From a virus (lineage: Duplodnaviria > Caudoviricetes), in IMG/VR virus record IMGVR_UViG_3300028797_000006, positions 54,403-118,402 of that record: a stretch of 64,000 bases of DNA; one strand, given 5' to 3'. Within the stretch, counting starts at the first letter, position 1; each line of letters begins with the position of its first letter. Made by a program: the position numbers and the translations under genes. The notes beneath the pieces are model-generated. The model was not told the DNA's origin, did no database searches, and saw only the letters and a program-made list of their open reading frames with translations. Of this stretch, positions 5,845 through 48,475 are shown piece after piece.

Positions 5845-5941
5845 TGGCACGGGTTGTAGGACTCGAACCCACACCTACCGCTTTGGACACGGAATCTTTA
5901 CGGTTTTGAAGACCGCTGTGCTGCCATTACACTAAACCCGC
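5845..5941 (-). tRNA. tRNA-Trp(UCA) opal decoder with ~23-nt expanded variable region
   Basis: GCGGGTT/AACCCGT acceptor, G73, CCA; anticodon arm GCGGT-CT TCA AA-ACCGT; T-arm GTGGG TTCGAGT CCTAC; acceptor resembles the phage's tRNA-Trp(CCA). Confidence 0.9.
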
Positions 5942-35133: not shown

Positions 35134-35859
35134 TTATTTAGGTTCTCCGGTCAAGTTTTTACGCGCGATTTGCTTGTCGATTGCAATTCTATGGATATCA
35201 GGGGTATTCTTTAATACTCCGCTAGTGACGATTTCTTTTAATGAGACAGGAGTATAGTTGATATGCTCCGCACAAATATTCATATAAAGTGAATTGTAAT
35301 CTAAATTATGTTGATGTCCATGGATATTGAAGAGAAATTCTGGTAACCATCCAATTGGCTCATGTGATAAAACGATTTTATTTGAAATTATAACTGCGCC
35401 TTCATAGACTTCATCAAAGAGATGATTATCTTCATAAACATCATCTTTTGGTTTTACAGTGCCGCACTCAGGACACCAAGCATATTCATAACCGCAGTTA
35501 TAAGCAGTTAATAAATCATGATTAACTTCTCCTCCACATTTTGGGCAAGTATCTGAATTATGTTCTATTTCAGTTATCTTTCTTTTGTAATAACTTGCGC
35601 CGCGGTCATGGTTTCCTAAAATTAAAACCTTATAGCCTGCTTTTAACTTTTTGACGCGTTCAATGTCACCAACGTCTCCTAAAATAATAAGAGTATCATT
35701 CTTGTGAACTACTGCGTTAATGCGGTTAATTTGTTCTTCATCTGTGATACCACGAATGGCATTCATTTCTGCGTCGCCAAAATGCGGATCGCTATAGAGG
35801 TAAATTGAACCTCCGCGATACCAGCGTTGCGCGAAAACATCATACAAATGTTTAATCAT
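35134..35859 (-). CDS. calcineurin-like metallophosphoesterase with Zn-ribbon insert
   Basis: SDPHFG, LGDVG, GNHD, HEP, HGHQH; CPKC..CPEC insert. Confidence 0.85.
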   Translation of the reverse strand: MIKHLYDVFAQRWYRGGSIYLYSDPHFGDAEMNAIRGITDEEQINRINAVVHKNDTLIILGDVGDIERVKKLKAGYKVLILGNHDRGASYYKRKITEIEHNSDTCPKCGGEVNHDLLTAYNCGYEYAWCPECGTVKPKDDVYEDNHLFDEVYEGAVIISNKIVLSHEPIGWLPEFLFNIHGHQHNLDYNSLYMNICAEHINYTPVSLKEIVTSGVLKNTPDIHRIAIDKQIARKNLTGEPK

Positions 35860-35877
35860 AATAAATCCTTTCTTTAA

Positions 35878-35953
35878 TGGCACCGCTAGTAGGATTTGCA
35901 CCCACGTAAGACGACTTAGAAGGTCGTTGCATCATCTTCTATGCTATAGCGGT
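35878..35953 (-). tRNA. tRNA-Arg(TCT)
   Basis: ACGAC-CT TCT AA-GTCGT, CCA. Confidence 0.88.
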
Positions 35954-35958
35954 AAATT

Positions 35959-36033
35959 TGGCACCCTTGGTAGGAGTTGCACCCGCATCCTGAGTTTCGT
36001 AGACTCACATTCTATCTGTTGAACTACAAGGGT
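35959..36033 (-). tRNA. tRNA-Arg(ACG)
   Basis: TGAGT-CT ACG AA-ACTCA. Confidence 0.88.
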
Positions 36034-36036
36034 AAA

Positions 36037-36127
36037 TGGCAGAGACGGTGGGATTCGAACCCACGGGCCCGTTACAGGCACACAAGATTTCAAATCTAGG
36101 CGCTTATGACCACTTGCGCACGTCTCT
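36037..36127 (-). tRNA. tRNA-Ser(TGA)
   Basis: TT TGA AA loop, long variable arm, G73. Confidence 0.85.
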
Positions 36128-36216
36128 AGATGGTTACTCCCAACATAAACCTGATAAAGGGGTTTCACCTGGCATTCTTTTTTATCTGCTCATGACTAGT
36201 ATTGAGCAAGTAGGTT

Positions 36217-36302
36217 TGGCAGAAGCGGAGAGATTCGAACTCTCGGTCCTTGCGGACTCTTGTTTTCTAGACAAGTGGTTTAAACCGCTCACCCACACTT
36301 CT
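36217..36302 (-). tRNA. tRNA-Ser(AGA)
   Basis: CTTGT-CT AGA AA-ACAAG, long arm. Confidence 0.85.
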
Positions 36303-36473
36303 ATATTGTCATGCTAGTATCACTGCTAACGGCTAGACAGAGCCGGGTGGTTCACAAACACCATTCGCCTGCAGATCTTCGCTGTAGACCCAAGCAGTGC
36401 TTTTCGATAGACTGCCTCGCTGTCGTTTCGTTGATTAATCGGGTAGACAGCACCATACCTGTTATAAATTATT

Positions 36474-36568
36474 TGGCAGAGAACGCCGGACTTGAACCGG
36501 CACCCCGGATTACTCCGAGTACTGGCGGTTTAGCAAACCACTGCCTTACCAATTAGGCTTAGTTCTCT
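36474..36568 (-). tRNA. tRNA-Ser(GCT)
   Basis: GTGGT-TT GCT AA-ACCGC. Confidence 0.88.
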
Positions 36569-36571
36569 ATT

Positions 36572-36647
36572 TGGTGCGCCTAGAGTGATTCGAACACTCG
36601 ACTCCATAATTAAAAGTTATGTACTCTACCGGCTGAGTTATAGGCAC
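36572..36647 (-). tRNA. tRNA-Lys(TTT)
   Basis: CATAA-CT TTT AA-TTATG. Confidence 0.9.
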
Positions 36648-36837
36648 ATATGGTGGGCCTTACACCCACTCAAGAGGTATCGTAACGCGTGTCATACTTG
36701 CGAGTTTAAAGTTTTCTTTCTTATATAATAAGGAAGTAGCGGCCCCTGCCTACTTTACAATGGACTTCTTTGCGAGGCTCCGTTCTCCTTCTCATATTGG
36801 TTATTTTGAGAACTATCCATTAACCTTATAAATTAAT

Positions 36838-36913
36838 TGGTACTCCGCCTGGGACTCGAACCCAGATAACACTAATTAAGAGTTAGTTGCACGACCAGTT
36901 GTGCTAACGGAAT
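36838..36913 (-). tRNA. tRNA-Lys(CTT)
   Basis: ACTAA-CT CTT AA-TTAGT. Confidence 0.88.
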
Positions 36914-36916
36914 ATT

Positions 36917-37018
36917 TGGTGGGAATTGAGGACTCGAACCTCCACCTCTCACTTCACCGAGAGGCCTTTGTTTCACCCCGTTTTCGCAGGGCGGTGCCAC
37001 CTTGACACTTTCATCCCA
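36917..37018 (-). ncRNA. atypical tRNA-like RNA
   Basis: D-arm, T-loop TTCGAGT and CCA present; non-canonical anticodon arm plus extra CCTCTC/GAGAGG hairpin. Confidence 0.6.
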
Positions 37019-37020
37019 TT

Positions 37021-37105
37021 TGGTACCGGAAGTGGGACTCGAACCCACACGTCTCTCGACAATTGCTTCTAAGGCAATCTTCTGTGCCAACTCGAATATT
37101 CCGGC
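37021..37105 (-). tRNA. tRNA-Leu(TAG)
   Basis: ATTGC-CT TAG AA-GCAAT. Confidence 0.88.
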
Positions 37106-37108
37106 ATT

Positions 37109-37195
37109 TGGTGTCTAAGGTGAGACTCGAACTCACACGCCCTTTCGGACATTACCCCCTCAAAGTAAGGCGTCTACCAGTTCCGCCACTTAGAC
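37109..37195 (-). tRNA. tRNA-Leu(GAG)
   Basis: TTACT-TT GAG GG-GGTAA. Confidence 0.88.
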
Positions 37196-37201
37196 GTTTT
37201 T

Positions 37202-37334
37202 TGGAATAGGCAGGAGTTGAACCCGCATAAAATACTTCTGTGATGACAAACAATATTCCGATAGATCTGCCCATAAGTCATCTAATTATTGGACTCGTCC
37301 CGTCAGCTCTCCCATTTGAGCTATAACTATTCCA
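37202..37334 (-). ncRNA. tRNA-like RNA with greatly enlarged anticodon region
   Basis: TGGAATAG/CTATTCCA ends, D-arm GCTC..GAGC, T-arm GCGGG TTCAACT CCTGC, ~75-nt middle. Confidence 0.6.
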
Positions 37335-37338
37335 TATA

Positions 37339-37414
37339 TGGTGGTCAGACTCAGAGTCGAACTGAGGTGCATGGTTTTTCAGACCATTGTACCAACCGTG
37401 TATACCATCTGACC
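37339..37414 (-). tRNA. tRNA-Phe(GAA)
   Basis: ATGGT-CT GAA AA-ACCAT. Confidence 0.88.
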
Positions 37415-37416
37415 AG

Positions 37417-37962
37417 TTAGATGGAATCTGCTGTAATTCCACTATTATCGCACATTCTAATAACTTTCATCATCTCGACAGGAGTATAATCCCATCTTTC
37501 TACACATAGACATGCGCCATTACGTGCGATTGTAGGGAACATGCCATGAAAGTCCTTTGCGTGCACATGACCATAGAAGTGATAGTCATATGTATCATGT
37601 GAGTTTCCTGGACGCGCATCAGGTCTGTGTGAGAAGAAGATTTTATTCCCTGCAATTTCTTTAATGAATGAAGGTAATACTTCTTCAAAACCGCAATCAA
37701 GATAGAATTGTTTGGACTTAGTGTCGTGATTGCCGCGCACTAGAATTTTATGTCCTTTAAGTCGAGGAATGATCCACTTAAGTGAAGACTCTTGACCGAG
37801 CCCGACATCACCAAGATGAATAACAATGTCGTCATCTGTGACTACTGCATTCCATCTCTTAATCATTGCGTCATTCATTTCTTCAATAGAGCGAAATGGT
37901 CTATCTTCATATTGAATGATATTTTTATGATTGAAGTGAGTGTCGCTAATTAAATAAATCAT
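37417..37962 (-). CDS. calcineurin-like metallophosphoesterase
   Basis: SDTHFNH, HLGDVG, GNHD, GHVH. Confidence 0.88.
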   Translation of the reverse strand: MIYLISDTHFNHKNIIQYEDRPFRSIEEMNDAMIKRWNAVVTDDDIVIHLGDVGLGQESSLKWIIPRLKGHKILVRGNHDTKSKQFYLDCGFEEVLPSFIKEIAGNKIFFSHRPDARPGNSHDTYDYHFYGHVHAKDFHGMFPTIARNGACLCVERWDYTPVEMMKVIRMCDNSGITADSI

Positions 37963-38029
37963 AACTTTCCTTTCTTATACAAATAATTATACCAGAACCT
38001 TTTGAGTTTGTCGATAACTTTTTTCCTTT

Positions 38030-38101
38030 TGGTCGCCGCACGTGGAGTCGAACCACGCTAAGACGCTTATGAAACGTCCGCGATCACCGGATCATACGGC
38101 G
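38030..38101 (-). tRNA. tRNA-Met(CAT) elongator (or Ile2), short D-arm
   Basis: GACGT-TT CAT AA-GCGTC; 1-72 paired. Confidence 0.75.
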
Positions 38102-38103
38102 GT

Positions 38104-38180
38104 TGGCTAGGGCGGGAGGACTCGAACCTCCACAAACACGGGTTCAAGGCCCGTTGACTCTACCATTCGTCCACGCCCCA
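38104..38180 (-). tRNA. tRNA-Gln(TTG)
   Basis: CT TTG-type loop in ACGGG..CCCGT stem. Confidence 0.85.
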
Positions 38181-38184
38181 ATGT

Positions 38185-38279
38185 TGGTACTCCCTGAGGG
38201 ACTCGAACCCCCAACCAGCCAATTATCTGTTGCTATACGGGGTATAAACCCGCCGCTCTACCGGTTGAGCTAAGGGAGT
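38185..38279 (-). tRNA. tRNA-Ile(TAT) with long variable region
   Basis: GCGGG-TT TAT AC-CCCGT plus ~24-nt variable region. Confidence 0.8.
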
Positions 38280-38283
38280 ATAA

Positions 38284-38364
38284 TGGAGACACTGGCAGGA
38301 TTTGCACCTGCGATGATTTACTGAGGTTGCAGCTCAGCCCCTTCGACTACTCGGGCACAGTGCC
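38284..38364 (-). tRNA. tRNA-Cys(GCA)
   Basis: CTGAG-CT GCA AC-CTCAG, U73. Confidence 0.88.
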
Positions 38365-38367
38365 AAT

Positions 38368-38402
38368 AAAAAACCGCTAGACATATTCCTATGCTAGCGG
38401 TT
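38368..38402 (-). terminator. attenuator terminator preceding tRNA operon 1
   Basis: AACCGCTAG-CATAGGAATATGT-CTAGCGG-TTTTTT; its TAGCATAGGAA can instead pair with TTCCTATGCTA in the leader ORF. Confidence 0.8.
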
Positions 38403-38436
38403 GTACCTGATTGTACACTGTTAGTGCCAGTGTTAA

Positions 38437-38526
38437 TTATTTGGTTTTGTTAGCATAGGAAAACTTACACTTCATAAAGCGTGAACTAAGTCTTTGTTTG
38501 GAACATATCTTTAATTCGTTGATCAT
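38437..38526 (-). CDS. leader peptide 1, MINELKICSKQRLSSRFMKCKFSYANKTK
   Basis: AAAGGAGA RBS; codons match operon-1 anticodons; last codons form the antiterminator. Confidence 0.8.
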   Translation of the reverse strand: MINELKICSKQRLSSRFMKCKFSYANKTK

Positions 38527-38995
38527 GTTGTGTTTCTCCTTTGCTAAACGATTATAAGGTTCATTTAACCAACAGACAGTAAGCTTGTAGGGTTCTCTTT
38601 CGAGACTTTGCAGTTGGCACCTCGGGCCTCGCACCGTCCACTGACATAATGCCAGATACCTTACCTATCTTAACCTTACATTATTATTATAGGATAATTT
38701 TTCGATCCTGTCAATAGAATTTTCATAAAAAAATTACCGAGTTATCGGTAATCTCCGGGAATAGATTTTGAGTAAGGCCCCTAAGGTCACTATTCAGTGT
38801 TAACTTTTATGCAGCCGTTAACGAACAACTAGTTATCGTACTAGCGAACTAGAATGGATTTGGGACCATTCATTTACCCAAGAACATATTTACTAGCTAT
38901 CGGTAAAGGCCACTTAGTCAACCCTATTCATTCTTACTCTTATGTAGGAACTCATCCTTTACTATTATGGGGTCTATTGTTAGGCTAGTAACGTA

Positions 38996-39598
38996 ACTGC
39001 CCTTTGATAATTATCTAATGCTGACCTTCGTCATACACGGCTTATTAACTGACATTATTCACACACGTTCACTAGAGTCTGAGGCAAAGGGAGCGACCCA
39101 ATGACTTCTCTAATGGCATAAAGCGATCAACGGGAACAGTTTACTTTGTTCCAACTTTCACCGAGCTTCAGAGCATATTGTATATTGATCGTAACTTTCA
39201 ACGTCGCGGTCAGATTTAACCTTATGTTAAAGCTTCTTCATTTGTCTTTCAGCTACTCGTACAGCCATATTCAGTTATAGGTTATTTCTAACCATCAAGA
39301 CACCGGTTTCCTTTGAGTGCCGGGATATTAAGTTTCTCAGGCTTAATTCCTTAGGCGAGATGCATTACTGCAGTTGCTACTTGTCACCGCTGAATTTAGG
39401 CTTTGCTTATGCGTAGTTAACACGATGCACAACCAACTACATCCTTCACTGCTTTCCCATAGTAGGTTTACCTATAAGTTTCCCGATAGGTTTCTTACTC
39501 ACAATACAGTATCCCATATTGCTTTCATTCTGTAGCTGGCTCCAGGCGGTCCGCAAGACCATCTTCACCTGGTTGCAAAGATAATTATCAAAGAACAA
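38996..39598 (-). ncRNA. large structured ncRNA, ROOL-like (~600 nt)
   Basis: Ends pair (CTTTGATAATTATCT/AGATAATTATCAAAG); own TTGACA-N17-TATAAT promoter; ORF-free and tRNA-adjacent; GGGTCGCTCCC..TCAGACT segment recalled from ROOL RNAs but not verified. Confidence 0.6.
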
Positions 39599-39941
39599 TT
39601 ACAACATTAAGAAGTTTATTTTTCCTTAATGGTATATGTATTATAGAATTTTTCTGACGAGATGTCAAGAAACTTTCCACTAATTTTTGAAGAAGTTTTT
39701 GGTTATAGCCCTTAGGGCAACCTTAAGGCGAACTTCTCGGAAACCTCCAGATCGTTCTAATTGGCAGTAGAACTTATTGGCTAAGACTGTTTGCTACTGT
39801 AGCCTTCCGCTTCACATTGTTTAAGCACTTGTCGCAGCCATACCGCATCTCGGAACTTTTTAGCAAATAGGTATACGCGGCCAATCTCAACCCTATTGGT
39901 AGGTCGGGGTTATAACTCCCACTTGAATAATTAAATATAAA

Positions 39942-40277
39942 TTATTTTCTCTTCTTAGTCAAGGACTTTTTGGCTTTTTCTTCAAGAATTCTCTTGAGGT
40001 TATCCTTGATATCAGCAAGGTAAACATCTTTTGCCGCACAAGTTGGAAGTAATTTATATTCATCCCATAAGTCAGAAACACAAATCTTAACACCACGTGC
40101 GTTGCAAGCAAGAGCAAATGACTCTTTATCGTGATATTTACTTAACAAACCACAAGCACCGACATCAATGCGGCCGACTTTGTCGAGACCGTGCCATAAA
40201 TGTCTTTTTGGACCGTGATGTTTGCGCAAGCGTATTTTAACTGGGGCCGCTGGCTTACCCCCTCTTCGAACTGCCAT
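39942..40277 (-). CDS. basic hypothetical protein
   Basis: Arg/Lys/His-rich N-terminus; own promoter. Confidence 0.7.
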   Translation of the reverse strand: MAVRRGGKPAAPVKIRLRKHHGPKRHLWHGLDKVGRIDVGACGLLSKYHDKESFALACNARGVKICVSDLWDEYKLLPTCAAKDVYLADIKDNLKRILEEKAKKSLTKKRK

Positions 40278-40341
40278 TGTAGTAGTTCTCCTTTCTTTAT
40301 ATAAATAATTATAGCATAACCTTTTGAGTTATGCCACAATT

Positions 40342-40635
40342 TTATTCTCTAATAATGCAACGATCATGGAATTCATCACTACCTACATAGTGAAGTTTTC
40401 CATCAAGAACATAGAAAACTCCTTCGCAACCGTCATATTCAACGATTTGATAATCAGTTGCTTCATCTGGAACCTCTACAACCTTAAGTGTTTCGGCGTA
40501 TCCACCGAACTCATTAATGCGACCGACAAAGCGTCCTGTTTCCACTAATTCAATAAAATCTGGACGGAAACGTGCTATTGCACTGGTTTCACTAATTTTT
40601 CCGTAACTTGTATTTATAACTACTTTCATGCGCAT
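40342..40635 (-). CDS. hypothetical phage protein
   Basis: KVVIN..LKVVEVPD..YQIVEYDGCE. Confidence 0.7.
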   Translation of the reverse strand: MRMKVVINTSYGKISETSAIARFRPDFIELVETGRFVGRINEFGGYAETLKVVEVPDEATDYQIVEYDGCEGVFYVLDGKLHYVGSDEFHDRCIIRE

Positions 40636-41018
40636 TTTCTCCGTTTTTCCGCCACTTCCCTTTAGAACTCCCCAGTATCATTTTTAATACTGAGATTGTC
40701 GAGTTCTTCCTCATAAAGTCTTTCAACTTCGTCCTCATATTCGTCACAGTTCTCGCAGTTAATGTGGCAATAGTAAGAATGTTCACAGTCCATGCACATC
40801 ATCTCATATACATAATCTTCAATGTTAATCATAAAAGTGCTCCTTTTTATTTTCATAGCCGTGCTCAATCCAGCCTCTTATATAATCTTCTCTATTGCTT
40901 TTATTTCTAAGAAGATAGAACCAAGCACTAAGTTTGCTGGTATAAGCCTTTTTAATAACAAAGCCGCCGCGGATTAAATAGCAGCCATAATAAACTTCTT
41001 GCATTTCTGGTTTTTCCA

Positions 41019-41669
41019 TTAATCCCACCAGCTTTCTAAATATTTAGACACGATGCCTAAAAACTTTCTTTTATACTTTTGTTCTAATTTATACATCTTT
41101 TTATGCCATTTCTTGACGATTTTGCGGCTAGATGGATACCATTTTCCGTCTGGTCTGAAACGGTATTCGCACTTCCAATTGCGGTCAAAAATCTTTTCAG
41201 AGTCGTCAAGGTCAATGACTTTAAAATTATCATCACTAATGTGTTGCCATTTATAATAATATTCAAGAGCTTTTGTGAGTGTTTCTTCACGAGTTGGCTC
41301 ATTTTTATAACGGATAGGATCTTCGTCTTTTTGTTCCATAGCGTGAACACCTTCACCGCCATGATAAAAATCCTTCATAAGATTTAAGTAAGTGACGAAC
41401 ATATCCATACCATAGCTCCATTCGCCTGGATGGCTTTCATCAACAATTTTATGAAGTTCATTTTTATAAGCGTCTATCATATCATAATAGCCGTCAGAAT
41501 AATCGCATTTTATTTCGTTGCCGAGAGAATTATATGCTTCGTTAGAAGAACAAGATGGGTCTTCATCTTCTTCATCATCGTGAAGCAGAAGATTCTCGCA
41601 GTCATCAAAAAAGAAGTCTTGTGCTAAATCTTCTTCTGCTGTATCAGGCATTAAATCCATTTTACACAT
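41019..41669 (-). CDS. hypothetical protein
   Basis: 216-aa ORF ending WWD. Confidence 0.7.
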   Translation of the reverse strand: MCKMDLMPDTAEEDLAQDFFFDDCENLLLHDDEEDEDPSCSSNEAYNSLGNEIKCDYSDGYYDMIDAYKNELHKIVDESHPGEWSYGMDMFVTYLNLMKDFYHGGEGVHAMEQKDEDPIRYKNEPTREETLTKALEYYYKWQHISDDNFKVIDLDDSEKIFDRNWKCEYRFRPDGKWYPSSRKIVKKWHKKMYKLEQKYKRKFLGIVSKYLESWWD

Positions 41670-41671
41670 AA

Positions 41672-42052
41672 CTATTTATCCCTTATACGTAAGAATTGAT
41701 CCCAGTTCCAAGGATACCAATCGGTTTCACCATAGGAACGGAGTGTATCCATACACCATTCAACAAATTCTATTGAGCGGCGTCTATTGAAAAATTTGTC
41801 TTCTCTTGGAAGATAAATCATTAGTTCATCACCGATACATTCGGTGCAAATCTGCTTTAATGTTTGTTTTGCGAAAAGTTTATTAGCTCTATACATTAAA
41901 GGTATAAGTCTACGAACTCTATCATAAGCAGTTGCTGGTTGAAGATGATTGTTGCGTCTGTAAGCATATCTACATTCAACGATTAAAAGGTCATACATAT
42001 CTTTTAATTCTATTCTAATTTTAGCATTTATATCCCATTCTAGTGTTTTCAT
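41672..42052 (-). CDS. hypothetical protein
   Basis: RBS before MKTLEW. Confidence 0.65.
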   Translation of the reverse strand: MKTLEWDINAKIRIELKDMYDLLIVECRYAYRRNNHLQPATAYDRVRRLIPLMYRANKLFAKQTLKQICTECIGDELMIYLPREDKFFNRRRSIEFVEWCMDTLRSYGETDWYPWNWDQFLRIRDK

Positions 42053-42063
42053 AATTGTTCTCC

Positions 42064-42456
42064 TTAGATAATGTAGATATCGAGGCAATCAATATAATCT
42101 TTACCAACGTATTCTATTTTTAATTCTCCGTTTAAGTCTTTGCTGAAGTTCATTGGTCTGAAACCACTTGCTTCTATGCGGAAAACTTTATAATTACCAA
42201 ATCTCTTGAGCAATACATTTGTTTCAGTATCAAGAGGTTTATAATGACGAGCATCATCGCAGAATGGATTATTATCCCAATAATCTTCATTTAAGCTAAG
42301 TATTTTATTAAGAGTGTTTCTGCGGCTTCTATCTCTAAAATTATAAGGACTATGAACCTTACGAAAAGACTCGAAGATTAAACAATCTCTATTTGGTTGA
42401 TAAATGCGATAATGTGTATGAGGTGCTAAATTTAGAATGAATTCTCGTAGGGTCAT
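42064..42456 (-). CDS. hypothetical protein
   Basis: ORF with promoter and RBS. Confidence 0.65.
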   Translation of the reverse strand: MTLREFILNLAPHTHYRIYQPNRDCLIFESFRKVHSPYNFRDRSRRNTLNKILSLNEDYWDNNPFCDDARHYKPLDTETNVLLKRFGNYKVFRIEASGFRPMNFSKDLNGELKIEYVGKDYIDCLDIYII

Positions 42457-42514
42457 ATTTTATATACTCCTTTTAATCTATATTAGTATACCATAACTTT
42501 TTAGTTTAGTCAAT

Positions 42515-42905
42515 AAAAAACCTCCCTTAAGGGAGGAAAAGAGCCCCTCTGACTAATACAGGAAGAGAGGCGCAGGCACAACCCTGCTAGCAGACTTACT
42601 GTCTGGAGTTTCCCGGCTTTCTCTTCTTTCTACCTTATGCATTGAGGTTAATTACCTATTACATAGACAAGTACGACTTGTAGCATATGCCTAATAGGCT
42701 GAAGGAGTCCACTGACTTCTTAGGACAGGCCTTTCACCTGCATGTCCCTCCTACTCGATATTATTTCAATCTTTCTGAGGATGCTTCTACGTGCAATTAC
42801 TTGCTGTCAACTTAAGTTACCTAAGAAACAACATTCAGTACTGGGTGGTGGAACATGCGCGCGGGATATCCCCGGGCCTAATAGGACAACTAAGTCCTAC
42901 CTCTT
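42515..42905 (-). ncRNA. putative ~380-nt ncRNA
   Basis: ORF-free; TTGACA..TATAAT promoter upstream; 5' hairpin; terminator CCTCCC/GGGAGG-T6. Confidence 0.55.
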
Positions 42906-42924
42906 TTGATATATAATTATATGA

Positions 42925-43263
42925 TTAATCTTCTGCTTTGTCAAGACTTTTCCTATAATCGTCTAAAAGTTCTTGGGCCTCTTCATCAGAGAAGACAAGA
43001 TGTCTTGAGTTGTCTGGTAAAGTTATCCAAGTACCAACTTCTTGTTCCATACCAATATATTGGAATTGTCCGCCCCATTCGTGATTATATGGGACAACAT
43101 CCCATTCAATAATGGTACAATAGCCGTCAGTACATATATGTATATCACAATAATGCTCGTCACTTTTATTATTATATTCAAAAAGATAATCTAAAAGTTT
43201 TTTATGTAATCCTTGCTCTACTTCTTCTGGAGTAAAAGCCATACTATTATATTCTGTTTTCAT
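42925..43263 (-). CDS. hypothetical protein
   Basis: ORF with RBS. Confidence 0.65.
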   Translation of the reverse strand: MKTEYNSMAFTPEEVEQGLHKKLLDYLFEYNNKSDEHYCDIHICTDGYCTIIEWDVVPYNHEWGGQFQYIGMEQEVGTWITLPDNSRHLVFSDEEAQELLDDYRKSLDKAED

Positions 43264-43274
43264 ATTTTAACTCC

Positions 43275-43574
43275 TTATTGCTTTTGTTTTTGTTTAATTA
43301 AATCATTAACATAATCAACGACTTCATTCCAATCTTGGATGGCTTTATTTTTAGCTTCATCATCTTTAACATTGATGTTATCATAGCCATCTGCTTTAAT
43401 AATTCCGCAGCCGCCACATTCTAACCAATATTCTGTGCAGCAATCATACTCCATATCACCCCATGGGTCGAAGCCTCTTGACTTTATGACAGGAGCTGCG
43501 CCGCAAATTGGGCATGGCTTTCCCACATAATCCTTGTGTTCTAGTCTTGTTTTTAATCTATCTATCGTACTCAT
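43275..43574 (-). CDS. Lar-like Zn-ribbon protein
   Basis: KPCPICG..C..CG..AIQDWN pattern. Confidence 0.6.
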   Translation of the reverse strand: MSTIDRLKTRLEHKDYVGKPCPICGAAPVIKSRGFDPWGDMEYDCCTEYWLECGGCGIIKADGYDNINVKDDEAKNKAIQDWNEVVDYVNDLIKQKQKQ

Positions 43575-43648
43575 AAAACTTATACCTTTCTAATATCTAT
43601 ATTAGTATACTAAAAAAGATGGACTATGTCCATCATATTATTGGTTAA

Positions 43649-43724
43649 TGGTGCGTCTTGAAGGGCTCGAACCTCCGACCTCTACTACGTCAAAGTGGCG
43701 CTCTCCCAACTGAGCTAAAGGCGC
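43649..43724 (-). tRNA. tRNA-Val(GAC)
   Basis: TT GAC GT loop. Confidence 0.88.
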
Positions 43725-43885
43725 ATGAGTGGAATTTTTGGCAGGAACTCCACGAACCGTCAACTATTTTAACCACGAAAGTTTTCACAAAGGATAGGTT
43801 TTAACGCGACCCAGTTTGAGTTGATGAGGCTCCACCTACAAACGGCTGTTAGGACATTACAGCTTTGGGAATCACCCGCCCTACT

Positions 43886-43961
43886 TGGTACTCCCTGACG
43901 GGCTTGAACCGCCGACCCACTGCGTGTAAAACAGTAGCTCTCCCAACTGAGCTAAAGGAGT
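43886..43961 (-). tRNA. tRNA-Val(TAC)
   Basis: ACTGT-TT TAC AC-GCAGT. Confidence 0.9.
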
Positions 43962-43968
43962 ATATATA

Positions 43969-44205
43969 TAATTTCTCTCTGAAGTCTCATTTTTTGTGCA
44001 GCCTGGGCTTCGTTGTTATCTGCACGTTCGTCGACGCCAGGTCTTTTTTATCGCGTCCCTCAATATCACGCCTTAGTCGGAAAACCCCGGCTCGCCTTTG
44101 ATATGGTCTTGGGAACATCCTTTGTTACAAGCAGTCTTCATCTGCAGCCCTTCTCCGTTCTACTACTGTGCACATAGTAAATCGGTAATACGTTGAGAGA
44201 AATTA
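43969..44205 (-). ncRNA. putative ~235-nt structured RNA in tRNA operon
   Basis: Ends pair AATTTCTCTC/GAGAGAAATT; GC-richer interior. Confidence 0.5.
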
Positions 44206-44213
44206 GAAATAAT

Positions 44214-44310
44214 TGGACAGGCTAACGGAGTTGAACCGATGGCCCCTCGAGCGAGCCTTTTATAATCAACCGTATACAATTGATTATAAAACTTACCGTA
44301 AGTTAACCTG
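44214..44310 (-). ncRNA. tRNA-like RNA with 12-bp extended anticodon stem
   Basis: Acceptor-like CAGGTTA/TAGCCTG, CCA end, T-loop TTCAACT, stem TTTTATAATCAA/TTGATTATAAAA. Confidence 0.6.
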
Positions 44311-44314
44311 ATAA

Positions 44315-44388
44315 TGGAGCCGTAAGAGGGAGTCGAACCCTCGACCTTTCCTTGGCAAGGAAATGTTTTACCGCTAAACTACTACGAC
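44315..44388 (-). tRNA. tRNA-Gly(GCC)
   Basis: TTTCC-TT GCC AA-GGAAA. Confidence 0.9.
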
Positions 44389-44389
44389 A

Positions 44390-44463
44390 TGGCACGGGAG
44401 CTACGATTTGAACGCAGATACACAGTTTTGGAGACTGCAGTCCTACCGTTGGACGACACCCGC
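44390..44463 (-). tRNA. tRNA-Trp(CCA)
   Basis: GCAGT-CT CCA AA-ACTGT. Confidence 0.88.
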
Positions 44464-44706
44464 ATATGATGGAGAGTGATTATTTTCGCAGCCCTCTCTC
44501 CCAGGATTTCTTGTGTCCGTTCTGCTAGCCGAGTTTCACGGCATCTTTTATAGACATGTGGACGTCACTTGAAGGCTAAGTCTTGTAGCCCAACGGTTGC
44601 TCTCGGTAATGGCCGTTCCCTGCACCGCCGCTTTTATGCGAGGATAGCGGTACCTCTTAACTATTTTGTTTTTATGTTAAACGGGCGTCACCCCATGCAA
44701 ACTATT

Positions 44707-44792
44707 TGGTGGGTAAAGAGAGACTTGAACTCTCACGACCAACCGGTCAGCGGATTTTAAGTCCGCTTTGTCTGCCATTCCAACACTTACCC
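44707..44792 (-). tRNA. tRNA-Leu(TAA)
   Basis: GCGGA-CT TAA AA-TCCGC. Confidence 0.9.
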
Positions 44793-44805
44793 AATGAATG
44801 GTTAT

Positions 44806-44882
44806 TGGTACCCCTCGAAGGATTCGAACCTTCACTAAATAGTTTTTGAAACTACTGCCTCTGCCAGTTGGGCTAGAAGGGC
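44806..44882 (-). tRNA. tRNA-Leu(CAA), short variable arm
   Basis: GTAGT-TT CAA AA-ACTAT. Confidence 0.82.
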
Positions 44883-44885
44883 ATA

Positions 44886-44962
44886 TGGTCCGAAGCAAAG
44901 GATTTGAACCTTTGATCCCCTGATCCCAAATCAGGTGCATTACCAAGCTCTGCTAGCTCCGG
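44886..44962 (-). tRNA. tRNA-Pro(TGG)
   Basis: CCTGA-TT TGG GA-TCAGG. Confidence 0.9.
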
Positions 44963-44967
44963 ATAAT

Positions 44968-45041
44968 TGGTGGATCGAAGGGGAATCGAACCCCTAGCCC
45001 CTGAGTGCAAATCAGGAAGTTTCCCGTTAGCCTACCGACCC
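44968..45041 (-). tRNA. tRNA-Ala(TGC)
   Basis: CCTGA-TT TGC AC-TCAGG; G3:U70. Confidence 0.88.
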
Positions 45042-45044
45042 ATA

Positions 45045-45620
45045 TGCGCGGTTGTCAGTGGTTTAGAGAGGTACCGTAACCGCAAATCAACCTCTATACC
45101 TACCTTGGCTTTCTCCGCACCCTGCTACTCGCAATAGCCAACCCCGAGTTGCGGCTCAAGTTTCTGGGCTCTCCACCCCGCGGGCACTGCCAAATTCGTT
45201 CAACACTTTCATCCTGTGGTAGTTGCCACCAACGGCTTTATCGGGTGGATAGCCGCAAACCTCGCGTCGAGCATCATATTTCTATGAAGGTTATCTGCAA
45301 CGCACTACCTCGTCGTAGCCCGCTCCTAGGGTTCATCAATGCTTCCTCAGTTTCGGGTCGTTCTGTCCCACGGTGACCACATGGTCTTTATCCTTTGTTG
45401 TGGGTTTTAAGTAATACTGACTTTTGCCACTGGATGGCAGGATTGGCCTGCGTTCCGAAGTCCTAAACCTCGGGTGCTAGATCGGCACTACGTCCAGATC
45501 ATCAGTATTTTTATTTAACATCAGCAGGGCGGTAACCGACGCGCGTCCCTTTCGTTAGCCAGCTTTCATCCGATGACCTTCTAGTCGGTAATGTCTCATC
45601 GGTATCTACCCTCTAACTTT
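45045..45620 (-). ncRNA. ~575-nt GC-rich noncoding tract (one or more structured RNAs) in tRNA operon
   Basis: No credible ORF; many hairpins, e.g. ATACTGA/TCAGTAT enclosing ~100 nt. Confidence 0.55.
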
Positions 45621-45642
45621 TTGTATTGATGTTATAAACTAA

Positions 45643-45719
45643 TGGTGCCCGTTGAAAGATTTGAACTTCCAACCCTTCGCTTACAAGGCGACTGCTCTAC
45701 CGTTAAGAGCTAAACGGGC
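45643..45719 (-). tRNA. tRNA-Thr(TGT)
   Basis: TCGC-CT TGT AA-GCGA. Confidence 0.88.
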
Positions 45720-45896
45720 ATATCGGATTTTCTCTTCCCCGTCGGGCGATGCAATTATTCCGGGCGATTTGTCCTGTCAACACGCCACCGATGACAGACT
45801 CTTTTGGCGTTCTCTGGAAAGAGTAATTTCGAGGGAGATTCACCTCCACGCAGTCTTAATTTACTATTGCTAATAAACTAACATTGCGTGAGAACT

Positions 45897-45978
45897 TAGT
45901 CGAGGGAATGGGATTCGAACCCATGGTCACTGATACTGTTTTAATCCGGAAGCTGCCTTACCACTTGGCTATCCCTCG
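45897..45978 (-). ncRNA. tRNA-like RNA or pseudo-tRNA without canonical anticodon arm
   Basis: Intact acceptor, D and T arms; anticodon region unpaired; ends CTA. Confidence 0.6.
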
Positions 45979-45980
45979 AT

Positions 45981-46055
45981 TGGTTGCCGGGGTGAGAGTC
46001 GAACTCACTACCCAAAGGTTATGAGCCTCAGATGCAACCGTTACACTTCCCGGCG
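45981..46055 (-). tRNA. tRNA-fMet-like (CAT)
   Basis: CT CAT AA loop; C1:A72 mismatch. Confidence 0.8.
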
Positions 46056-46062
46056 ATATTAT

Positions 46063-46136
46063 TGGAGCCGCACAACGGATTCGAACCGATGTCATCTGCT
46101 TGGAGGGCAGAGGTATTGCCACTATACGAGTGCGAC
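46063..46136 (-). tRNA. tRNA-Gly(TCC)
   Basis: TCTGC-CC TCC AA-GCAGA. Confidence 0.88.
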
Positions 46137-46141
46137 ATAAT

Positions 46142-46216
46142 TGGCGGAGCCAGAGGGAGTCGAACCCTCACCGTCCGCGTGACAGGCGGACATCATAACC
46201 CCTAGACCATGACTCC
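46142..46216 (-). tRNA. tRNA-Asp(GTC)
   Basis: TCCGC-CT GTC AC-GCGGA. Confidence 0.9.
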
Positions 46217-46218
46217 AT

Positions 46219-46295
46219 TGGTGGGAGGCCAGGGAATTGAACCCCGAACCTTTGCCTTATCAAGACACTGCTCTAACCTATTGAGCTAGCTTCCC
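46219..46295 (-). tRNA. tRNA-Ile(GAT)
   Basis: TT GAT AA loop. Confidence 0.88.
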
Positions 46296-46299
46296 ATAT

Positions 46300-46374
46300 T
46301 GGTGACCCCGGTCGGTTACGCTCCGGCCGTGTTAGGATGAAAGCCTAATGACTTCACTAGTTGTCTACGGGGCC
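46300..46374 (-). tRNA. tRNA-Glu(TTC)
   Basis: TTAGG-CT TTC AT-CCTAA. Confidence 0.85.
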
Positions 46375-46449
46375 AATTAGTTTTCTTCTTTCTTTTTACA
46401 TATATATTATACGGTAAGCTTTTGAGTTTGTCCATATAATTTTTCTTTT

Positions 46450-46525
46450 TGGTGTGAGGTGCGGGAGTTGAACCCGCATAGCTGGTTTCACAGACCAGTG
46501 AACTAACCATTGTTCTAACCTCACC
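46450..46525 (-). tRNA. tRNA-His(GTG)
   Basis: CTGGT-CT GTG AA-ACCAG. Confidence 0.88.
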
Positions 46526-46532
46526 ATAGCAT

Positions 46533-46609
46533 TGGCGGCCCGTTAGGGATTCGAACCCCAAACCCTCTCCTTAACAGGGAGCTGCTCTGACCGTTGGAGC
46601 TACCGAGCC
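46533..46609 (-). tRNA. tRNA-Asn(GTT)
   Basis: CTCC-CT GTT AA-GGAG. Confidence 0.9.
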
Positions 46610-46611
46610 AT

Positions 46612-46696
46612 TGGTGGAGATTGATGGAGTTGCACCACCCGAAGTTTCCTAACAGTTTTACAGACTGCCCCGCTACTATCTACGGTATAAATCTCC
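46612..46696 (-). tRNA. tRNA-Tyr(GTA)
   Basis: GCAGT-CT GTA AA-ACTGT. Confidence 0.88.
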
Positions 46697-46698
46697 AA

Positions 46699-46896
46699 TT
46701 ACTTATTGCTTAGTACTTTGATATAAAGTCCGCATTGGCATTCGCCATCACCTTGTTCTCTAAACTCCTTACACATACATTTATTTTCAGGAATATGTTT
46801 TAATTTACAAGGACAATAGCCATCATTAGCTTTTAGAGCTTTTTTGACTTCATCGACAATATCCTTATCGACATTTTGTATAACTAAATACTTCAT
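46699..46896 (-). CDS. ferredoxin-thioredoxin reductase catalytic-subunit-like protein
   Basis: GYCPC..CMC..GECQCGLY. Confidence 0.75.
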   Translation of the reverse strand: MKYLVIQNVDKDIVDEVKKALKANDGYCPCKLKHIPENKCMCKEFREQGDGECQCGLYIKVLSNK

Positions 46897-46908
46897 AGTT
46901 CTCCTAAT

Positions 46909-46935
46909 AAAAAAGCAAGGGTTAGAGCCCTTGCT
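46909..46935 (-). terminator. attenuator terminator preceding tRNA operon 2
   Basis: AGCAAGGG-CTCTAA-CCCTTGCT-TTTTT; its 5' arm can pair with the leader's CCTTGTTAATTAGT. Confidence 0.8.
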
Positions 46936-46962
46936 AATTAGTTTTCAAGTGATAAATTGAGA

Positions 46963-47043
46963 CTAATTAACAAGGTTGCTTAAAGGTTCGACATCTAAGC
47001 CGTGAATGGTATTATATGCTACTGTCCACAATACTTTTGCCAT
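46963..47043 (-). CDS. leader peptide 2, MAKVLWTVAYNTIHGLDVEPLSNLVN
   Basis: AAAGGAGA RBS; codons match operon-2 anticodons; last codons and stop form the antiterminator. Confidence 0.8.
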   Translation of the reverse strand: MAKVLWTVAYNTIHGLDVEPLSNLVN

Positions 47044-47059
47044 AACCTTTTCTCCTTTG

Positions 47060-47430
47060 CGTAACGGTAGTAATCGCTTCACTACCAAGCTACCACATCC
47101 TTGCGTGGTTCCAATGACCTGCCGTTTTATAGTCCCCTCGGGTCAATCGAGATAGGGTAATTTTGCTGTGTCGTGCGTCAGGATTACTACAACCATAATC
47201 ACGGTGGCGTTCATTCATAGGGGAATGCATATAGCCACAACCATCACCCGGAAGTTTTCTATGCCTGTCTAGATTAAGAAGGTTACGCCGTCAAAACGGT
47301 TAGTGGAGCCTTCATACTTCCAACTACATTGGTATCTCGCCGCAGCATCGCGCTACTTTATCTCTGCCGATAATTTGTTAGTCGCATCAGTTTAAGCATA
47401 AGTGGTAAATCGTGGCTTGCGACCAATAAG
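47060..47430 (-). ncRNA. ~370-nt structured 5' leader upstream of leader peptide 2
   Basis: ORF-free, hairpin-rich, downstream of TTGACA-N17-TATAAT at ~47455-47483. Confidence 0.5.
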
Positions 47431-47491
47431 ATATATTATATCTTATCTATAATTATTATAGAACTTTCTTGTCCCGTTGTCAAGAGATTTT

Positions 47492-48475
47492 CTACTTTTG
47501 GTGTTTCTTTTCCCAAGCCTCTCTATATTCAGCAGGGATATGTACTTCAAGAGTCTCTCTACTGCGTTCACTTTCGTCTATATTATAAATAACTTCATCA
47601 ATAGTATAGGCAAGGAATTTCCACTCTTCAGGAGCTTCTTTGATTACATCTTGGACATCTTCATAAGTTTTGAAATAGGACATACTGCCGCAATCAAACT
47701 TTGTGCCCATCCAATCTGGTGCTTGTCTTACATATTTAATTTCATAGCGTGTATAGGAATCGTCACCATTTTCATCGTGTAAAAACCTATTTTCATATTC
47801 TTCAAGCATATGCTCTTCTTTATCGAGCAAATCAAACAAGCCTTGAATATAAAGGTTACGGTCATCCTTATCATAAACACTATCACTAATATCACTTACT
47901 TGTTCACCTGTGTGGCGGTTAGTAGTATAACCATAGTCATAGGCAACATAATTACCATATCTATTGATGCCGATCTGTCCATTATCTCCAGTAAAACCGA
48001 AGTGGTCATTTAAAGCCTCCATAGCTTCGACTGCCTTGGTAGCACTTTCATAAGTTCTATCATAGCGTTCAGAGAACTCTTCTTCTGTTTCATTCTCTCT
48101 GCGGTTGACATAATCCATATAGTCATCAACATCACTATAATCGTCGTAAAAGTCTCTCCAGTCTTCAACTTCTACTCTTTCCATAATCTCGACAAAACGC
48201 CCATATGCGGCGATTTCCGCGAGTGGTAAAAAGTCACAGCATTCTAAATATGTTTTAATTTCAAGTTGATTTTGTCTGTATCCACCAATTCCCATTGCGA
48301 CTTTAACAATACAAGGGAAAGGAATACGCAAACCAAGTTTATATTCTAATTCAGTAGAAAATGGAAAGACCATGCGGGCGCAACCTGCATCCTCAGTATT
48401 TAATCCCATAACATAATCTAAGATTATTTTCTCTTGTTCGTGTGTTAGAACTATAATGTTTTCAGTTAATACCAT
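47492..48475 (-). CDS. acidic protein, possibly protein-kinase-like fold
   Basis: GCARMVF..VKVA..NQLE..IMERV..DNGQIG..VAYDYG resemble kinase subdomains. Confidence 0.5.
   Translation of the reverse strand: MVLTENIIVLTHEQEKIILDYVMGLNTEDAGCARMVFPFSTELEYKLGLRIPFPCIVKVAMGIGGYRQNQLEIKTYLECCDFLPLAEIAAYGRFVEIMERVEVEDWRDFYDDYSDVDDYMDYVNRRENETEEEFSERYDRTYESATKAVEAMEALNDHFGFTGDNGQIGINRYGNYVAYDYGYTTNRHTGEQVSDISDSVYDKDDRNLYIQGLFDLLDKEEHMLEEYENRFLHDENGDDSYTRYEIKYVRQAPDWMGTKFDCGSMSYFKTYEDVQDVIKEAPEEWKFLAYTIDEVIYNIDESERSRETLEVHIPAEYREAWEKKHQK

Follow-up and report, generated by a model that had tools for sequence, protein, structure and literature searches.

In leader-peptide attenuators of the usual design (PMC1183508), the regulatory codons specify one amino acid. 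Here we describe a candidate attenuator with a much broader set of codons, found on the minus strand of a 64,000-nucleotide (nt) stretch of phage DNA. This stretch, which we call the window, forms the right-hand end (64 kb) of a virus record that is complete (IMGVR_UViG_3300028797_000006; 118,402 bp, direct terminal repeats). The element lies immediately upstream of an array of 14 transfer RNA (tRNA) genes (array 1; 35878-38364), and its short leader open reading frame (ORF) carries one codon for each of 13 tRNA species of that array. We consider it likely that the element gates the phage tRNA array by ribosome-mediated transcription attenuation and responds to the speed at which codons for the array's own tRNAs are decoded. 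All coordinates given for promoters, leaders, switches, and arrays in the window are on the minus strand.

The locus contains the parts by which leader-peptide attenuators are recognized: a 5′ leader that contains a short ORF and its ribosome-binding site, an intrinsic terminator, an excluding antiterminator that a ribosome could cover, and cognate regulatory codons. With trpL and hisL it shares the layout of a kinetic race between ribosome and polymerase, a distance of about 65 to 70 nt between stop codon and terminator, and mutually exclusive helices. Unlike trpL and hisL, the phage leader shows three evident segments; a segment 1:2, the anti-antiterminator or pause hairpin, is seen in one relative alone, L001. 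The phage codons are all different rather than repeated. With three segments, an untranslated phage leader should read through and not super-attenuate as in trpL and hisL. The multivalent enterobacterial ilvGMEDA, ilvBN, and thr leaders are also short, translated, and equipped with codons for more than one amino acid, and the position of the ribosome decides between overlapping terminator and antiterminator. However, those leaders regulate biosynthetic enzymes and use repeated codons to sense two or three amino acids, whereas the phage leaders have one isoacceptor-level codon for each of 13 to 15 tRNA species and would control the tRNA genes themselves. The pheST leader (pheM) is likewise an attenuator before a translation apparatus gene that answers to the supply of charged tRNA, but it senses Phe codons only and controls a synthetase, not tRNA genes.

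T-box riboswitches resemble the phage element in being terminator/antiterminator switches in a 5′ leader that report the status of specific tRNAs. A T-box, however, is untranslated and uses its specifier codon and the conserved T-box sequence to bind a single uncharged tRNA directly, while the phage element has an ORF predicted to be translated. An Rfam search across 35500-47500, with E values up to 1, found no T-box, riboswitch, amino acid operon leader, or other cis-regulatory leader family. In Firmicutes, a ribosome stalled in the short ORF of antibiotic response leaders (e.g., vmlR, bmrCD, and ermK) frees an antiterminator, an instance of the mechanism at work in these bacteria. These leaders have the same three-element design as the phage element, but their ribosomes are stalled by a drug and not by the supply of a codon-specific tRNA, and their targets are resistance genes. 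No account of tRNA genes controlled in this way was found by full-text literature searches or by a search within one key phage tRNA paper, in agreement with the first-pass annotation of this DNA, whose author also knew of none. What is new is the target, tRNA genes, and the sensor, an isoacceptor-specific codon for each of 13 to 15 species; classical multivalent leader-peptide attenuation is already known.

The DNA runs that contain the phage came from bovine gut samples, and it is a rumen phage. Since the best cultured matches in a protein search with the phosphoesterase encoded within array 1 were Bacillus Herelleviridae phages (~40% identity), the phage is likely to have a Firmicute host. 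Phage BigBertha has no tRNAs near its phosphoesterase gene, and DNA searches of sequenced phage isolates returned no matches for the leader or for the neighboring ROOL RNA, so that no cultured model was found.

The first-pass annotation had proposed a promoter, a ribosome-binding site, a 29-codon ORF, a terminator before tRNA-Cys, and an 11-bp antiterminator. All of these elements are present at 38368-38714. The sigma-70-type promoter (TTGACA-17-TATAAT; 38686-38714) matches the consensus at 12 of 12 positions. It is followed by an untranslated leader of about 150 nt (38527-38680), in which ~110 nt are an insertion not present in close relatives, with a fold no better than that of shuffled sequence. 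AGGAG at 38540-38536, 9 to 10 nt upstream of the ATG, provides a strong ribosome-binding site for leader ORF 1 (29 codons plus TAA; 38437-38526, with the ATG at 38526 and the stop codon at 38439-38437). Codons 6 to 18, the putative sensor, occupy 38473-38511, and the antiterminator 5′ strand lies within codons 22 to 26. This strand (38461-38451) is the exact 11-nt complement of 38396-38386, the antiterminator 3′ strand, which also forms the 5′ arm and loop of the terminator. A small spacer hairpin (38415-38433), predicted by folding, is enclosed by the antiterminator. The intrinsic terminator (38368-38400) consists of a hairpin at 38400-38374 and a tract of six T residues at 38373-38368, and it ends 4 nt before tRNA-Cys, which starts at 38364. 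When the leader-1 RNA is folded in full, the terminator forms (−36.6 kcal/mol; z = −3.4), while withholding the terminator 3′ arm allows the 11-bp antiterminator to fold around the small hairpin. Terminator and antiterminator therefore exclude each other, and the alternative folds anticipated for this region were obtained.

The same design appears a second time in the window, in front of another tRNA array (array 2; 18 genes, 17 species; 43649-46696). The two arrays hold 31 to 33 tRNA genes. The promoter of attenuator 2 (47455-47483) again has 12 of 12 consensus matches, and leader ORF 2 (26 codons plus TAG; 46963-47043) is preceded by AGGAG. The switch (46908-46975) comprises a 14-bp antiterminator, in which the last codons and the stop codon (46975-46962) pair with 46942-46929, and a terminator with its hairpin at 46935-46914 and its T-tract at 46913-46908. 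Here the antiterminator is the minimum-energy fold even with the terminator included. Array 2 can read every one of the 18 codons 4 to 21 of leader 2 (46981-47034), and these codons represent 15 of the 17 tRNA species in the array. The design recurs in L038, a related rumen contig.

Two further features accompany attenuator 2. A long noncoding leader, ~400 nt in the window phage (47044-47448) and ~700 nt in L038 (2205-2900), separates the promoter from leader ORF 2. Several blocks of 10 to 26 nt within it are kept between the two phages, RNA contigs cover 47052-47432, and no Rfam family matches it; the region may be a structured RNA of a new type. Between the attenuator-2 terminator and the first tRNA gene of array 2 lies a 65-codon Cys-rich ORF (46699-46896, minus strand) with repeated C-x-C motifs and its own Shine-Dalgarno sequence. 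It is absent from L038, where the terminator directly abuts tRNA-Tyr.

Array 1 begins with the genes for tRNA-Cys, Ile-TAT, Gln, and Met, which are followed by the phosphoesterase gene (37417-37962) and then by Phe, Leu-GAG, Leu-TAG, Lys-CTT, Lys-TTT, Ser-GCT, Ser-AGA, Ser-TGA, Arg-ACG, and Arg-TCT. Codons were assigned to tRNAs by standard wobble rules, in which G34 reads U or C, A34 (inosine) reads U, C, or A, C34 reads G, and U34 reads A or G or, in a lenient version, whole four-codon boxes. Codons 6 to 18 of leader 1 were assigned one to one to 13 of the 14 array-1 tRNAs, with Leu-TAG alone unmatched, exactly as claimed at first reading. The 18 consecutive codons 6 to 23 are all readable by array 1, and none of them is readable by array 2 except the shared Met codon ATG. 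Eight leader-1 codons outside this run are unreadable by array 1, and all eight are readable by array 2. The matching extends to isoacceptors: AAG and AAA correspond to Lys-CTT and Lys-TTT, AGA and CGC to Arg-TCT and Arg-ACG, TCC, AGT, and TCA to the three Ser tRNAs, and GTA and GTC to two Val tRNAs. In G003, one of the groups of relatives described below, CAA and CAG correspond to Gln-TTG and Gln-CTG, and GCA and GCC correspond to Ala-TGC and Ala-GGC.

The two leaders were also compared with each other. Codons readable by only one of the two arrays (own versus other) divided 19:8 in leader 1 and 3:22 in leader 2 (one-sided P of ~5e-5 by a hand normal approximation). The two leaders therefore split the genetic code as the two arrays do. 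The same 2-by-2 test gave P values of ~3e-4 each in L038 (17:6 and 5:20) and in G003 (18:10 and 2:19). By hand estimates that use generic proteome amino acid frequencies, the array-1 amino acid set makes up at most ~46% of codons (an upper bound, with all Ile and Leu codons counted), an own-array run of 18 codons has a probability of at most ~1e-6 per position (~0.1 expected across the six frames of the window), and 13 draws land on 13 distinct classes out of 14 with a probability of ~1e-4. The correspondence between leader codons and tRNAs is far beyond chance.

The position of these codons relative to the switch was calculated from the coordinates. When codon 18 occupies the A site, the first base of the P-site codon is 38478 and the front edge of the ribosome (P site + 15 nt) lies at about 38463, two bases short of the antiterminator. 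Codon 18, the last of the all-different codons, is thus also the last stall position that would leave the antiterminator free. The corresponding limit is codon 19 in leader 2, where the run of own-array codons ends at codon 21, and codon 17 in leader 2 of L038, where the run ends at codon 18. Because the coordinates put the front-edge limit at codon 18, the sensor is placed where a stall would free the antiterminator and the end of the ORF is placed where a finishing ribosome would cover it. The same geometry bears on a switch of reversed polarity, a feed-forward device in which successful translation of the leader, needing phage tRNAs, would give read-through and stalling would give termination. 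Such a device would provide positive autoregulation once internal promoters had yielded the first tRNAs. However, 37 nt separate the end of the ORF from the terminator stem, so that a translating ribosome cannot melt the terminator, and the last codons of the ORF (in leader 2, the stop codon as well) overlap the antiterminator strand, so that finished translation favors the terminator. We regard reversed polarity as highly improbable.

To gather relatives, the phosphoesterase gene of array 1 was used as the query in scans. They comprise the groups G001 (L001, L031, and L043), G002, and G003 (L003, L032, and L033) and the closer rumen contigs L036, L037, L040, and L038 (L039 is equivalent to L038). 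Homologues of leader ORF 1 were found in L036, L037, L040, L038/L039, L001, and L003, and leader 2 was also found in L038 and G003. Six array-1 leader variants and three array-2 variants retain the architecture, and all nine leaders examined have a ribosome-binding site and a short ORF. Wherever a relative includes the beginning of array 1, a Shine-Dalgarno sequence, an ORF of 25 to 29 codons, and a terminator are present just before tRNA-Cys, with a promoter and one gene intervening between terminator and tRNAs in G003. These relatives keep codons matching their arrays as well. L038/L039 and L043 contributed no further leader variants. No new relatives emerged when viral contigs were scanned with a conserved 24-nt block or with the 327-residue protein encoded upstream, used either singly or in aligned form.

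Other tRNA arrays were found without such a leader. G002, which is related and has a four-tRNA array, has no leader ORF, and neither do L049 and L061, members of a different rumen phage group, before their arrays. A conserved and apparently structured noncoding stretch takes the place of the leader ORF before the tRNA array in L061 (1900-2200, minus strand) and L049 (3100-3370, minus strand). For array 2 of G001, a 58-codon ORF was considered, with 46 of 57 codons readable by the array and a weak alternative pairing with the terminator. It was not counted as a leader because a promoter lies after the ORF.

In each relative, the last codons of the leader ORF pair with the terminator 5′ arm; L040 resembles leader 2 in that its most stable fold is the antiterminator. 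A four-sequence alignment was used to assess both helices. For the antiterminator, 96% of cells were paired, compared with 24 to 50% when the partner strand was slid, and three pairs had changed on both sides. For the terminator, 97% of cells were paired and four pairs had changed on both sides. RNAalifold, run on five sequences (L037 added), found the terminator unaided (11 pairs, 7 compensatory) and, with the 3′ arm withheld, also found the antiterminator unaided (12 pairs, 3 compensatory). Two nucleotides in the terminator 5′ arm each covary both with a partner in the ORF and with a partner in the 3′ arm. Such dual covariation is expected if both helices are used.

If the leaders report on the tRNAs of their arrays, then leader codons should follow the tRNA genes, and this check in related phages gave the predicted result. 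Gln codons are present in exactly those leaders whose array has tRNA-Gln (7 of 7 leaders). L037 has lost the gene between Ile-TAT and Met (tRNA-Gln), and its leader has no Gln codon. In G003, where both Gln tRNAs are in array 2, leader 2 has CAA, CAG, and CAA and leader 1 has no Gln codon. Also in G003, array 1 has acquired the Pro and Thr tRNAs, and leader 1 has gained three Pro codons and one Thr codon; the Phe tRNA has moved to array 2, and two Phe codons are found in leader 2. In G001, Ser-GCT is in array 2 and leader 1 is without an AGY codon. ATA occurs in 7 of 7 array-1 leaders, and all seven arrays have Ile-TAT, although in G003 this tRNA was detected by Rfam only and its anticodon was read from the sequence. 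Two reciprocal swaps between the window and L040 (ATA/ATG and CAA/TCA) leave the inventory complete. An alignment of the window with L036 shows 14 sensor codons without a single nucleotide difference, and thus no synonymous drift, between diverged flanks. As judged from these sequences, selection acts on the codon set and not on the peptide sequence, since leader codons track the gain, loss, and movement of tRNAs, swaps keep the set intact, and sensor nucleotides are conserved.

These results also bear on the possibility that the ORF encodes a small functional peptide followed by an ordinary terminator, with the arrays expressed by read-through and internal promoters and the likeness in codons arising from peptide composition and shared ancestry. 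The peptides of close relatives can be aligned, Asn recurs near the N terminus, and the terminator is strong, all of which a functional peptide would accommodate. It would not account for a peptide that is not conserved across divergent relatives while its codon set follows the array, for a sensor kept without synonymous drift in the close group, for compensatory changes that tie the end of the ORF to the terminator, or for the same design before a second array with a complementary amino acid set. This explanation is therefore very unlikely in our view.

RNA from the locus was examined in metatranscriptome contigs; four bovine gut runs contain the phage, and stretches without RNA coverage were taken as no evidence. 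Depth was very uneven, from hundreds to about 1,000 over ROOL to 0 to 4 over neighboring protein genes, which argues for RNA and against contaminating DNA as the source. The leader transcript was distinct from the upstream ROOL RNA in three rumen metatranscriptomes. Leader-1 contigs (38406-38686, 38406-38666, and 38280-38667) start at 38666-38686, and no contig spans 38690-38750 or the leader-1 promoter. One contig (38667-38280) passes through the terminator to the 3′ end of tRNA-Cys, and the leader and tRNA-Cys are thus cotranscribed. Leader contigs from two studies end at 38406, 6 nt ahead of the terminator stem. ROOL contigs similarly end at the edge of the ROOL terminator in 4 of 4 runs. 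The ends at 38406 give a weak hint of termination, but a strain difference at 38402 could also break the contigs.

The ROOL RNA itself is full length (222 bits; 39002-39596, minus strand) and forms a separate transcription unit (promoter at 39668-39640, terminator hairpin at 38753-38731) that immediately precedes attenuator 1. It is by far the most abundant phage piece in the rumen metatranscriptome contigs. ROOL also precedes leader 1 in G003, and none was found in L038.

Both arrays contain an internal promoter. In array 1, the sequence TCGACA-17-TATAAT with an upstream TG (37986-38014; 11 of 12 matches) could allow the phosphoesterase gene and the 10 distal tRNAs to be transcribed independently of the attenuator. 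The first-pass annotation had raised a promoter at about 37987-38015 as a caveat, and the near-consensus promoter found there is conserved in L038. In array 2, a near-consensus promoter lies at 46406-46434 (11 of 12 matches). The promoters of both arrays are kept in L038 (9826-9854 and 3387-3415), which suggests a second layer of tRNA expression that would be independent of the attenuators.

In the mechanism that we propose, transcription would begin at the consensus promoter, and a ribosome would load at the Shine-Dalgarno sequence and translate the 29-codon leader while the polymerase nears the terminator. Codons 6 to 18 would act as the sensor, one codon for each of 13 downstream tRNA species. 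When decoding is fast, the ribosome would reach codons 22 to 29 and the stop codon and cover 38461-38451, the terminator at 38400-38374 would form, and transcription would stop 4 nt before tRNA-Cys. When decoding is slow, at any one sensor codon or moderately at several, the ribosome would lag with its front edge upstream of 38461. The strand at 38461-38451 could then pair with the newly made 38396-38386, no terminator would form, and the polymerase would enter the array. A second, independent leader with a disjoint codon set would gate array 2 in the same manner. Because host and phage tRNAs alike would read the leader, the circuit would also constitute negative feedback that keeps each tRNA species at a set level.

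Conserved anatomy, exclusive helices with compensatory changes, a replicated codon inventory, and RNA contigs of the leader and of read-through all support the earlier proposal of leader-peptide attenuation. Two parts of that proposal needed revision. The leader had been described as an OR gate; the multicodon sensor stands, but a kinetic sum of decoding delays fits single codons better than a strict OR gate does. Because each tRNA is represented by a single codon, the switch probably integrates delays and would answer to severe loss of one species or to moderate loss of several. The statement that the array is transcribed only when one tRNA fails is too strong, given the conserved internal promoters.

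The use of single codons also fits a different switch, one that is truly coupled to translation but reports general translation capacity (host shutoff, ribosome availability, or the timing of infection), its codons ensuring only that phage tRNAs can read it. Single codons imply low sensitivity to any one tRNA. The antiterminator is the most stable fold in leader 2 and in L040, so that failed translation would give read-through, and the internal promoters suggest layered, temporal control. A switch of this sort would not, however, need disjoint codon sets, isoacceptor matching, swaps that preserve the inventory, or loss of Gln codons alongside tRNA-Gln. We think it unlikely.

Several points weigh against an attenuator that senses individual tRNAs. 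The matching is imperfect: Leu-TAG and Gly-TCC have no sensor codon, leader-1 codons 2 to 5 belong to array 2, L036 and L038 retain a TCC codon without a detected Ser-AGA gene, and leader 1 of G001 has four array-2 codons within the sensing range. The assignments partly rest on assumptions, namely inosine at A34 of the Ser, Leu, and Thr tRNAs and four-box reading by U34, and the chance figures were, as noted, estimated by hand from generic frequencies. Hairpins within the ORF of attenuator 1 are only weak, with an anti-antiterminator or pause hairpin evident in L001 alone, and without translation the default state would be read-through. The response to mild shortage may be weak with a single codon per tRNA, because known attenuators gain sensitivity from runs of regulatory codons. 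In Bacillus subtilis, at least, the polymerase outruns the ribosome, which would weaken the coupling of transcription and translation, and such coupling is doubtful in some Firmicutes. Much tRNA expression may escape the switch through the conserved internal promoters. Finally, we infer the translation of the leader ORF, the direction and size of the response, and its physiological trigger (starvation, nucleases, or decay of host tRNAs). Attenuation by decoding speed nevertheless remains the reading that we favor.

Other features of the arrays were observed. Some tRNA genes have a noncanonical T-loop and an encoded CCA end, and these fall below the Rfam threshold or are missed by ARAGORN at default settings. 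They include tRNA-Tyr in the window (46612-46696, minus strand) and Glu-TTC, His-GTG, Tyr-GTA, and Ile-TAT in G003 (L033 8560-8997, minus strand; L003 7973-8044). Their anticodons match codons of the adjoining leaders. Gaps of 90 to 600 nt without a tRNA or a convincing ORF interrupt the arrays (36127-36217, 36302-36474, 36647-36838, 43961-44315, 44463-44707, and 45041-45643). Some are covered by RNA contigs (e.g., 45242-45617 and 43977-44742), and further small RNAs may lie inside the gaps. A selenocysteine tRNA (tRNA-Sec; anticodon TCA) is predicted at 5845-5941 of the window (minus strand) and also in the rumen phage contigs L034, L055, L061, L076, and L098. Genes for transfer-messenger RNA stand beside tRNA arrays in L031 (G001), L003 and L033 (G003), L004, L049, L061, and L076; none was found in the window.

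The purpose of phage tRNA genes has been debated for about fifty years. The roles under discussion are codon compensation and the replacement of tRNAs destroyed by host defenses (PMC10264068, PMC11464382). A tentative extension of our proposal, possible but in our opinion doubtful, is that the two leaders are inducible counterdefense sensors: a host anticodon nuclease or tRNA decay triggered by infection that hits any of about 30 species would stall a ribosome at the single codon for that species in the corresponding leader and turn on the replacement array. More broadly, and with the same reservation, the leaders could belong to a widespread class of tRNA homeostasis circuits with one channel per array. 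If the attenuation mechanism proves true, the phage gauges decoding speed codon by codon, and demand can regulate tRNA genes beyond control at the level of promoters. Replacement on demand would become a directly testable idea. Classical attenuation would be extended from one to three inputs to more than a dozen, and the leader would be a compact natural part that reports the status of many tRNAs simultaneously.

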